NCBI GenBank assembly: GCA_964016885.1
Contig: OZ024742.1
Location: forward strand, 141,422,001-141,486,000
DNA from: Eledone cirrhosa
Taxonomy: Eukaryota
Reading direction: 5' to 3'
Length of the DNA stretch: 64,000 nucleotides
Of this stretch, positions 48,651 through 64,000 are shown piece after piece; position 1 is the stretch's first letter; every line of letters begins with the position of its first letter. Below the pieces are notes generated by a model. The model was not told the origin of the DNA, did not search any database, and worked only from the letters and a program-made list of their open reading frames with translations. The position numbers and the translations under genes were made by a program.

Positions 48651-50185
48651 TATGCATAGTTTTGGCAATGAAGTACATTGAATATAGAACATATTTGAGA
48701 TCTACGAAGCCAACTTAGCCTTTCATCCTTTCAAAGCCGCTAAATGAAGTGCCAGTCAAGCACTGGGGTAATATATCTCTCCCCTCTCTCTTTCGGATTC
48801 AGCTATGGGAAGGGGTAAAAAAAGAATCGTTCACATAGCGTCTCTTTTCACCACCCTAGAAATAAAGAAAGGGAAGTGAAATTGTATCAATCGAAAACCG
48901 AATCGGTTTTAACTCACCAAGAGTTTTATGATGATAGTAAATATTAGTAGAAAAACTATAATAGTTTTCCTTTCTGGTTAACAAAATGATACGATAACTG
49001 AAACTAGACAGACCGTATCTATAATATGTTCAATTAAATAGACGAATTGAAATATATTCCCGAAGCTTTATCTATACTTGCAGAAAATGTAAATTAACCG
49101 GACCAGTTTGATTCAGATTGAATGAACGCAAGATTTATGGTTTGGTATTGTTTAATAAACCAGGAATTTAATTTCTAGTTTATATTCTTTTTAACCCATA
49201 ATTGAAGTCGTAAAGTTAATCACAATGTTTCAAAAATAGCTGATGTGTTAGTAATGAAGTACATTTACCATGTTTCACTCATTTGATCTCGTAATTTCGA
49301 TATTTAACAAGAAATCCTTTCTATACTTCAATGTAACTATTTTGATGTAATAGCAACTATATTTCGCTATTTCCTTAATCATCTCATTCGGATAGTTCAA
49401 GGTTTTCAACCCATGACTTTAGATGTAGAGCCATCATTAAAATACGTAGTTGTCTAGTTTGTTAAATATAACAGCTAAATCTCCAACAGATCATACCTAA
49501 AAGATTGAATACATTAGGAATGATGCATTAGATAATTAATAAAAACCCAGAATATCCCGGATACAGGATTTTGTAGACAAGTATAGTCTTTAATAGGAAA
49601 GAGCCATAACATAGTTCTGGATACATCGTCTGAAAGAAAATACGGAATGCTCAGCTAAGGGTTAACCTTGCGCCGGACTGATGTTCTGATTAGGTTAAAT
49701 CTTGTATTCTCAATCATTTAAGCCGGGTTGAGTTACAGTCAGATGAACTTTTAGGCTTGGAATAGACTTTAAATGCTGGGTCAAAATAGGAAGTACGAGT
49801 AAACCTCCTTTCCACGAAAGAACCATCTTGACAGGAGGTGAAATTTGTTTGTTCTGTATGGTTCCGAAAGTTTACATTCGAAAATTCAACAGAGTTGAGC
49901 TTTAAATATCTTCAATGTATCACCTACAATACAACTTCCTACAAACATTAATATTTTAATTCAAGATAACTAACAAGATAGCATTTAATTCGAGATAACT
50001 AATAAAGTCGTATAGAGTATCATAAAATTATAGTTTCTGCAATAAATGCATATCTGCACAGTATAGTTGATTCAATTCCATTGCGCGGCTTTTTTTTGGC
50101 CAACAGCCTCGGGTTTGCCAACACTTTGAGTGTGAAATTTCACCAACTTAAACTATGCGATTGTTCATCAAATATCTATCTATCT

Positions 50186-51822
50186 TACGAAACGTTGACA
50201 GGAGCAAGACTAAACCCAAACAAGTCTGTTGGTTTGCAACTCGGCACATGGAGAGGCAAATCCATGCCTTCCGACAGTGTCGTTGGACGCTGGACGGAAG
50301 GACCGGTGAAATTGCTCGAGGTCTGGTTTGGTCCAGACCTCCAAGCGGACAAGAACTGGAACGCGGTCACGGCGAAGGTGTTTGCACTCACCCAGAAGTG
50401 GGCTGAGTGCAAACTCTCCTTGAAAGGTCGAGTGGAGGTCGCGAACACTTACATAGCGTCCGTCATCTACTACCGCTTGACAGTCGTACCTTGTCCCCGC
50501 GAATACCTCACCAAAATGGAACGCCTACTCTTCAAGTTCCTCTGGAAGAAACAGGCTCCATTGGTGAGGAGATCCATCTGCTGTCAAGACCCTTCTAACG
50601 GAGGGCTGGGCATGCCGAGGCTGATGATGCGCAAACACGCGCTGAGGCTACGCCATCAGGTATTTTTGACCGGTGAACCGGTGTGGCTGTTGTTTGTGAG
50701 ACGAGCTCTTCCACAACTCGTCTCACTAACAGAGCTGCAGTCCTGGGTAAATCAAAGACCGAAAATGGGTGCCTGGCACCTCGAGTGCCCTCAGGCGCTC
50801 ACAGCTCTCCACCAAGCGGAAACGGCAATCAATGGAGACTTCACTTCGACATTCTATTGGGGATTAGTGGAGGATAAGTGCGACGACGTTCTCGGGGAAA
50901 CTCTAGTCATCGAGGAGGACGAACTGACAAGTTTTTTCAGGAGGATTTTCCGTCCAAGGCCTATGGATAACTTCCAGAGGTCTCTGGCCTGGCAGTGCTA
51001 CCTAAGAGCTCTACCAGTTCGAGACAAAATCTACAGGCACGGACGCCCTTCAGAGATCCTGCCAAAAGGACCTGTCCAAGATGTGACATCGAAACTGTTC
51101 TGCACGCAATTGTTCAGTGCCCAGGGGTGACTGACCTGTGGAATTATGTCGAACAGCTACTGTCCAGTTGTCAGCCGAGTCCATTGTGAGGATCACCCCG
51201 CCGCCTTCATTTAAGAATGAAGGAGAGGAGGTTTCCTCTGTCTGGTGGCTATGGCGAAAGAGGTAATATGGTGGACGAGGTTAAAAGGACTGAGGGCAAA
51301 CACCTGTCTCTCCGGACAACAACTTATCCCCTTCTTTAAGTACCACTTCAGAAGGAAGGTGAGAGTGGAGAGAGAGGTGCTACACCCCAGTAAATTTGCT
51401 GAAAGGTGGGTGAATGTGGCGAAAATGGCCCGAGTGAATGAGCCTTCTCTGTATATAAACCTGTAGGTTGAGGAAGATAAACAGGAACACCTACAAAACG
51501 TGTTCCTGGTGTTGAGGGTTGTTCTATCCACGGGTGTAAAACAACCCTGCAGTAACGTTCCCCCCTATTGGGGATTTCAATTGTTATTTTCTTATATATA
51601 GTTTATTGTTATTTATTAATGTTAAAGTTATATGATTTTTATGTAAAACCCCCGCCGTCACGTCTTGTAATTGTCCCATTTTTGTACGCCCCTGTTGCAA
51701 ATGAAGAAAGATATCTATCTATCTATCTATCTATCTATCTATCTATCTATCTATCTATCTATCTATCTATCTATCTATCTATCTATCTATCTATCTATCT
51801 ATCTATCTATCTATCTATCTAT
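50186..51822 (+). mobile_element. Tx1-like LINE copy A1 (5'-truncated) with (ATCT)n tail
   Basis: Begins right after (ATCT)3 (50174-50185) at YETLTGARLN. ORF2 stop at 51464-51466; tail at 51713-51822. Confidence 0.95.
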
Positions 51823-63371: not shown

Positions 63372-63651
63372 GTGAGGAAGATGAAAGACCAAGGGAGCAC
63401 CCCTTCTCTGTGCTCCTGAGGAAAAGGGTTGCACACTTTTTTTCGGGGGTGTGTGCGACCCCCCAAGGCGCCTCCTCTCTATTGAGGACTTTGTTATAAA
63501 TTTCATTTTTTGTTATATTTTATTTTATTTTTATATATTGTTATTGCCTCCTCCTTATTGAGGACGCCTTGTTTTGTAAACTCCCCCCCATTGTACTTGT
63601 CCCACTTTTGATGCCCTGGTGGCAAATAAAAGAAACATATCTATTTATTTA

Positions 63652-64000
63652 CCCACATTTAAAACTAATAAAAATCCCAATGAACCTCTACCAAAAACTA
63701 AAAAAGGATTTTAAGGAGGACGTAGGACCACCCTCTGTCAAACCCATAAACCGCGTCCTACTAAAAAGCTTTCCCCCTCCCCTTCCCCTCCCCAACACAA
63801 CTCCAAACACCCCAACCCCACCACACACCGACGACCCCACACCACCACAAGACACCCCTTCACCCAACACCCCCGACCCCATGGAAGTCGTGCAACCCGA
63901 ACCCCGGGAAGCGGAAAGGTAGGTCTCTACACTCTCCTTTGGCTCTGCCGCCCACATGGATGTGTTAAGAGTAGGATGTTTGAATGCACGTGGCCTGGGC
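63652..64000 (+). mobile_element. Tx1-like LINE copy A4 (5'-truncated in ORF1; continues beyond the window)
   Basis: PHLKLIKIP..VKPINRVLLK..MEVVQPEPREAER* followed by the ORF2 start MDVLRVGCLNARGLG at 63956. Confidence 0.92.

Follow-up and report, generated by a model that had tools for sequence, protein, structure and literature searches.

Likely serial insertion of LINEs specific for ATCT into a single short repeat tract of the Eledone cirrhosa genome

The 64 000-nucleotide window of the Eledone cirrhosa genome analyzed here, at positions 141,422,001-141,486,000 of contig C3, contains an array of four same-strand Tx1-like LINEs (A1-A4, ~17.4 kb in total) that represent four subfamilies and are separated only by ATCT tracts. 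The four copies most probably (at a probability of about 0.82) belong to a LINE lineage specific for ATCT, denoted A, and entered a single short tract independently of one another, with the sites renewed by target duplication. The same window includes an older solo copy (A0) and an element of the sister clade, B. The relevant features are:

18183..20477, minus strand: B0, sister-clade element with the end AATAAAGAAACC followed by (ATT)n, lodged in the (TAA)n that ends an unrelated LINE
20478..25298, plus strand: A0, older solo copy, 5'-truncated, the 5' end abutting B0; followed by (ATCT)3 at 25299-25310
50174..50185, plus strand: (ATCT)3, left remnant or duplicate of the original target
50186..51712, plus strand: A1, 5'-truncated and decayed, ORF2 residues 710-1145 with three stops; end GCAAATGAAGAAAGAT
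51713..51820, plus strand: (ATCT)27, spacer between A1 and A2, apparently target-derived and likely lengthened by slippage
51821..57635, plus strand: A2, full length, with ORF1 and ORF2 broken (ORF2 in four pieces, four stops)
57636..57733, plus strand: (ATCT)22 with a variant; pure (ATCT)22 at 57636-57723, the variant ATCTATTTATCTAT closing the tract at 57720-57733
57736..63638, plus strand: A3, full-length young copy; end AATAAAAGAAACAT
57947 (ATG), plus strand: start of the A3 ORF1, with one CCHC knuckle and one frameshift near the ORF1 end
59906..59911, plus strand: GTAAGT, splice-donor-like word that holds the stop of the A3 ORF1
59934-63371, plus strand: A3 ORF2, with APE, RT and zf-RVT; two stops
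63639..63650, plus strand: A3/A4 linker ATCTATTTATTT, 12 bases, degenerate; target-site duplicate
63651..64000 and on, plus strand: A4, young, truncated inside ORF1, running to position 5608 of locus L031 (window-equivalent ~67,600)

The same-orientation, ATCT-joined array reported in the initial annotation is real, and A4 could be followed for 3.6 kb beyond the window, to an end that reads AATAAAGAAA-TCT-ATCT-ATCT. Truncation of the copies at different 5' points, also reported there, applies to A1, A4 and A0 but not to A2 and A3, which are full length; ATCT indeed follows the copies, but the polyadenylation-like signal of A1 is corrected to AATGAA. The pairwise identity of A1-A4 is 73-83% over the shared parts, compared with 88-99% identity to copies at other loci, so that each array member is closer to copies elsewhere than to its neighbors, which bears out the view that these are independent insertions rather than products of segmental duplication. 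In particular, A3 is 96.7% identical over 5.9 kb to a full-length copy elsewhere, and the head of A2 is found again at locus L120.

The variant that closes the tract before A3 (57720-57733) is seen again at 63639 and behind A4. The unit variant ATCTATTTAT accordingly occurs in three places, before A3, at the A3/A4 joint and behind A4, and is one target variant that was duplicated twice. Insertion of A3 followed by A4 requires one gained ATCT unit behind A4, relative to its duplicate; the reverse order requires none. Growth of arrays in one direction was considered and rejected: the copies in the window look older toward the 5' side, but in a sample of 60 copies, older subfamilies lie upstream in ~14 cases and downstream in ~11 (counted by eye). 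A0 has no 5' ATCT and stands head to head against the minus-strand B0, without a repeat at the joint (20477/20478), where a deletion after insertion is likely.

The specificity of the A lineage is apparent from its flanks across the genome. An exact search with the last 23 bases of A3, which favors young copies, yielded 1536 ends, with ATATCT next in 1302 (85%), compared with a background of 0.08% for this hexamer. The first 60 of the 1536 ends in position order, all on contig C1 and otherwise unselected, were examined further, with the 5' ends placed by hand for 11; the background was taken from 60 evenly spaced 10-kb control stretches (600 kb). The 3' flanks of these 60 copies start with ATATCT in 54 cases, ATATAT in 5 and ATATTT in 1. 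At the 5' junction, TATCT is found within 28 bases in 46 copies (77%), against a background of 4.5%, and is absent in 14; ATCTATCT is present in the same 28 bases in 33 of the 60, compared with 0.13% at a random position, and words of the opposite strand in none. The p-values (8e-50 and 4e-79) overstate independence because some of the 60 copies share an array. The ATCT/GATA specificity proposed in the initial annotation is thus borne out, and the predominance of random 5' flanks that would have contradicted it is not seen in the 60 copies; both the 3' flanks of the 1536 copies and the 5' flanks of the 60 far exceed the 20% of flanks that serves as the rule for target preference in the available text of PMC4494074. 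The A lineage is supported as an ATCT/GATA-specific LINE of the L1/Tx1 group.

The 5' ATCT cannot belong to the element in the 48 of the 60 copies that are truncated or rearranged, because these are broken at differing points. Target-site duplications, roughly 7-20 bases per insertion, were found in 41 copies and were not found in 19; 22 of them reach non-repeat bases and yield the site consensus ATCT^ATCTAT, in which the bases before the nick are conserved as well (-4 A in 16, -3 T in 16, -2 C in 16 and -1 T in 20 of the 22 sites). All other subfamily ends in the fetched loci are also followed by ATCT. Full-length heads of two types gave 583 exact matches, and 8 of 8 head-and-tail pairs are flanked by ATCT on both sides. 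The specificity is loose, in that insertions also occur at isolated TATCT motifs, in (AT)n and in a satellite; the copies in (AT)n sites (L040, L032 and L163) have no ATCT tail and carry AT on either side. The one at L032, ~11 kb past the window end, is another A0-type copy, flanked by AT at either end and lacking ATCT. Copies L135 and L136 lie in a satellite that holds ATCTCTTCTATCTAC, and L161 and L164 occupy the same position of another dispersed repeat that holds one TATCTGT. The 5' part is inverted in L037 and L158; inverted 5' parts occur in L1 twin priming. Full-length copies L319 and L321 are separated by 470 kb of C1 and yet have one unique 5' flank in common, through either duplication or 5' transduction. 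Metagenome scans for the targets of relatives in other animals returned nothing or distant single contigs, with an ATCT tail in none of the 9 inspected among 34.

Stacking is common beyond the window, in line with the repeated use of one tract proposed in the initial annotation. A same-strand relative lies within 300 bp upstream of 20 of the 60 copies, downstream of 17 and on either side of 29, and no relative on the opposite strand was found at this distance; the neighbor rate expected from 14 element ends in the 600-kb control (counted by eye) is ~0.35%. Two of the 60 control stretches hit further arrays. The lineage accounts for 17.8 of the 600 kb of control DNA (3%), a rough value because it comes from five stretches and mostly from two arrays, and 11 of the 25 control tracts of (ATCT)3 or longer touch a copy (7 by motif and 4 more by the BLAST table). 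Joints of the end-ATCT-start form of the ATCT family are also present in read-derived contigs (runs X1 and X2) from one sample, perhaps the source of the assembly, at loci other than the window.

The intact copy L121 encodes an ORF2 of 1145 residues with an N-terminal APE match, an RT match and a C-terminal zf-RVT match; in the Pfam search, Exo_endo_phos and RVT_1 score above the cut-off and zf-RVT below it. The best solved relative of ORF2 is human L1 ORF2p (E 3e-43), with R2 at 3e-20, and alignment with the former shows that the APE catalytic residues N10, E39, D141, N143, D202 and H227 are retained; the APE domain alone gave no PDB match. ORF1, of ~600 residues, contains a single CX2CX4HX4C knuckle in all three ORF1s examined, and its neighbors in a protein atlas are CCHC and ZCCHC3-like RBD clusters (0.90-0.92), which places it with the RRM/CCHC type rather than the mammalian coiled-coil type; RRM/CCHC-type ORF1s are linked to Tx1 in the available text of PMC5203782. 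Among named proteins, the closest relative comes from Argonauta hians, at 65% over the RT. In a quick RT tree of 47 rows, with P0073 left out as too short and no named Tx1 sequence among the rows, two separate clades were recovered, one of ATCT copies (support 95) and one of ATT copies (99), which group with the Argonauta protein (100), then with unnamed proteins, followed by turtle and fish proteins (82), and plant L1 stands apart. The A/B lineage likely belongs to the Tx1 clade, judging from the domain build and the target behavior.

The 3' end of the element reads AATAAA(A)GAAA and a three-base linker ending in T (CAT, TAT, TCT, TTT or GAT, depending on the subfamily), without poly(A). Near-identical ORF2 sequences and 3' ends are paired with several types of 5' UTR and ORF1 (L038, L039, L042, L044, L125 and L146), and these mixed combinations point to recombination between subfamilies, which arrays may favor. 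Two hairpins precede ORF1 in all six folded 5' UTRs (z from -3.5 to -7.3 against mononucleotide shuffles; window positions 51926-51990 and 57833-57905, and L121, L149, L119 and L219), with widely different sequences and no Rfam match; over positions 50000-64000, Rfam gave three weak matches far below the gathering scores and no ribozyme. The ORF1 stop lies within a donor-like word, GTAAGT, GTAGGT or GTGAGT, across the A and B subfamilies seen, that is, three stop codons within one donor shape (in addition to 59906-59911, window positions 53947-53952, 63919-63924 and ~21607-21614, and L202 and L208). A pyrimidine run and TAG|GT form the end of ORF2, and GTAAG or GTGAG is found within 100 bases of the start of most heads. 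An ORF1-only spliced RNA was suggested by these words; a search for such a form with exact patterns of the A3 type found no genomic copies of either joined form, and none was found in sequencing run X4, a run of unrecorded kind.

The sister clade behaves in the same manner at a different repeat. The B-type end has 591 exact copies, and among the first 30, ATTATT is next in 25 and ATCT in none. Among 20 B copies fetched with upstream DNA, the full-length ones are flanked by ATT on both sides, some are arranged head to tail (L204 and L214), and the 5' junctions of the truncated ones are mostly blurred. In the window, the unrelated RT-encoding LINE at ~15000-18182 ends in (TAA)n, and B0 sits in that tail in the opposite orientation. 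Beyond the ATT tract, B copies are often followed by one SINE-like repeat in the same orientation, represented by its head or by a truncated portion (L088, L091, L103, L171, L188 and L197); this repeat may have the B clade as its carrier and the same target. The A and B endonucleases, which are young and intact, are ~55-60% alike, and 15 APE positions separate ATCT-end from ATT-end copies. Among these, residue 194 is S in 35 of 36 ATCT-end copies and I in 14 of 15 ATT-end copies; S194 aligns between T192 and S202 of L1, in the target-reading hairpin loop, and in the available text of PMC1950540, grafting of that loop altered nicking by L1-EN. This association of the S/I difference with the target is a correlation between lineages, not a demonstrated cause. 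Given that the sister clade does at (ATT)n what the A lineage does at (ATCT)n, a single change of target preference separates these closely related lineages.

LINEs with an APE nick the target and then carry out target-primed reverse transcription. In the present case, the endonuclease likely nicks the AGAT (bottom) strand at ATAGAT^AGAT, and each insertion duplicates ~7-20 target bases, so that either end of the new copy would carry a site fit for further insertion. Priming of reverse transcription would not involve poly(A); the template is probably a read-through RNA that extends past AATAAA into the flanking AUCU of the donor locus, with this AUCU pairing with the nicked strand; pairing between RNA and target at priming has been proposed for SART1Bm and R1Bm (PMC7265360, available text). 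Full-length RNAs likely begin in the upstream tract and would bring one or two ATCT units to the head, and slippage likely accounts for the later growth of long tracts to 22-27 units. Owing to the asymmetry of the target between the strands, later copies share the orientation, which produces head-to-tail arrays mixing subfamilies of different ages, and because each insertion turns one site into two, tracts go on collecting copies. Four components of this explanation can be read directly from the copies, namely the site consensus, the duplication of target bases, the invariant orientation and the stacking.

The initial annotation had interpreted the (ATCT)n tail of the element itself as the next target, so that the element RNA would carry such a tail and write it at each insertion. 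LINEs of the I factor and L2/CR1 types add their own 3' repeat tail irrespective of the target. At least one ATCT unit indeed stands behind 54 of the 60 ends, and the frequent contact of control tracts with elements also fits this model, but the number of units is zero in 6 copies and one in 26. In a search that allowed extra ATCT units, 17 of the 60 copies were resolvable, being anchored exactly in non-repeat sequence at either side, and ATCT was gained at the 3' side in none of them (equal in 10, fewer in 7); the other 43, which include all those with long pure tails, lack a two-sided anchor, and templated gain is possible there. Furthermore, 5' ATCT is equally common at truncated copies, and an upstream neighbor that could supply it is present in only 20 of the 60. 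Taken with the copies flanked by (AT)n, the lack of gain at anchored sites and the ATCT-free copies indicate that the 3' repeat is target DNA. The DNA behind the linker is target, not a tail made by the element, the A lineage falls outside the class with element-encoded tails, and the own-tail interpretation appears improbable. At the opposite end, in L146, L153 and L164, which are full length and have a duplication that reaches non-repeat bases, 6-20 extra bases with one or two ATCT units separate the duplicate from the head, which suggests RNAs that start in the upstream tract. The landing pad is thus likely renewed by target-site duplication, with the addition of one or two head-borne ATCT units in full-length copies, as in these three cases.

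A rather unlikely, if less improbable, alternative is that the endonuclease is loose, cutting at TA steps in AT-rich repeats, and that ATCT is chosen through RNA-DNA pairing, with the AUCU end selecting AGAT nicks, so that A and B differ in their RNA ends rather than in their enzymes. The use of (AT)n in 5 of the 60 copies and the core T^AT common to both clades agree with this possibility, as does the available text of PMC1950540, where in vitro nicking by L1-EN is less defined than the integration consensus and base pairing is proposed as an added filter; the idea put forward for SART1Bm and R1Bm (PMC7265360) is similar. However, the bases upstream of the nick, with which the RNA cannot pair, are conserved too, (AT)n takes only those five insertions despite the excess of (AT)6+ over (ATCT)3+ tracts (222 vs 7 in 200 kb), and A and B differ at one set position of the target-reading hairpin loop. 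It is most improbable that insertion is random and copies survive or collect where repeats are many and genes few, or that the array is a product of duplication or misassembly: the genome is very rich in microsatellites and the junctions in the window come from the assembly alone, but the junctions are base-precise and on one strand, the array members are each closer to copies elsewhere, read-derived contigs from the same sample hold the same type of joint at other loci, and ATT, not ATCT, flanks the B copies of this genome. Insertion of an ATCT-specific lineage into a target that it duplicates accommodates these observations best.

Microsatellite-specific Tx1-type LINEs have been described previously: according to the available text of PMC4494074 and PMC3812793, Kibi inserts into (TC)n, Koshi into (TTC)n and crocodilian Tx1 families into (TTCC)n/(TTTC)n. 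These are likewise APE-type LINEs of the L1/Tx1 group with one microsatellite each, and a tetranucleotide target is already on record. Their targets consist of pyrimidines only, in contrast to (ATCT)n and (ATT)n, used here in what is likely an octopod host (a comparison by target, not by kinship), and none of the 60 3' junctions of the A copies starts with (TC)n or (TTC)n. Also unlike these families, the Eledone ATCT lineage comprises at least five subfamilies on one target, combined in mixed arrays.

Waldo, Mino and Dong belong to the R1 and R4 clades. They are microsatellite-specific as well, on (ACAY)n, (AC)n and (TAA)n, respectively (PMC3812793, available text), and the repeat of Dong is that of the B clade; the latter, however, is the sister of the ATCT clade. 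Serial insertion into one target that leaves head-to-tail copies around a target-site duplication is also on record, in the available portions of the respective papers, for tandem SINEU-3 copies that sandwich a TSD and for Tx1-Mar in Mariner-N4_AMi (PMC4494074), and for tandem Utopia in U2 genes (PMC4640811). In those cases, the target is a transposon or an RNA gene, whereas here the target spans 10 bases of a simple repeat, with roughly half of the sampled copies in arrays. Renewal of the pad by target-site duplication is accordingly an ordinary outcome for repeat-specific LINEs, as the SINEU-3 example in PMC4494074 illustrates.

The initial annotation also drew a parallel with telomeric retrotransposon arrays. 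HeT-A and TART form head-to-tail telomeric arrays. The likeness holds for the head-to-tail order, in a formal sense only, because an internal target is duplicated and the array is located 141 Mb into a contig of 379 Mb, with copies spread along C1. SART1Bm and TRAS insert in an oriented manner into the short repeat (TTAGG)n, where about three units suffice (PMC7265360, available text); unlike these elements and HeT-A/TART, the ATCT lineage is interstitial and genome-wide, with no poly(A) at the junctions and no sign of a role at chromosome ends.

In the available text of the octopus repeat papers (PMC13282606 and PMC8967140), L1-Tx1 families are counted and targets are not given. The literature search, which did not extend to Repbase, found no GATA- or ATT-specific Tx1 family, and a prior Repbase entry is quite possible. 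The present findings add two further targets for the known microsatellite-specific Tx1-type LINEs, not a new kind of system, and so extend by two a list that has been short so far. The A and B endonucleases are a matched pair, with different targets in one genome, so that a change of specificity becomes directly testable. The ATCT lineage explains part of the genome build, namely 3% of the control DNA and 11 of 25 GATA tracts; in practice, microsatellite markers of the GATA type will frequently be bordered by a repeat on one side in such genomes, and the mixed arrays will confuse builders of repeat libraries. A broader scenario, possible albeit doubtful, is an undescribed octopod radiation of Tx1 in which two sister clades each settled on one microsatellite, (ATCT)n or (ATT)n, via few endonuclease changes (S vs I at the tip of the hairpin loop), with the ATCT clade filling some percent of the genome and nearly half of the GATA tracts. 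Transcription of this clade would start within the upstream repeat, whereby full-length copies would seed new ATCT at the head, and read-through together with conserved donor sites of the U1 type would serve in place of poly(A). If true, this octopod radiation would be a self-propagating system of repeat and element, and would provide a ready pair for mapping the change of target in a LINE endonuclease.
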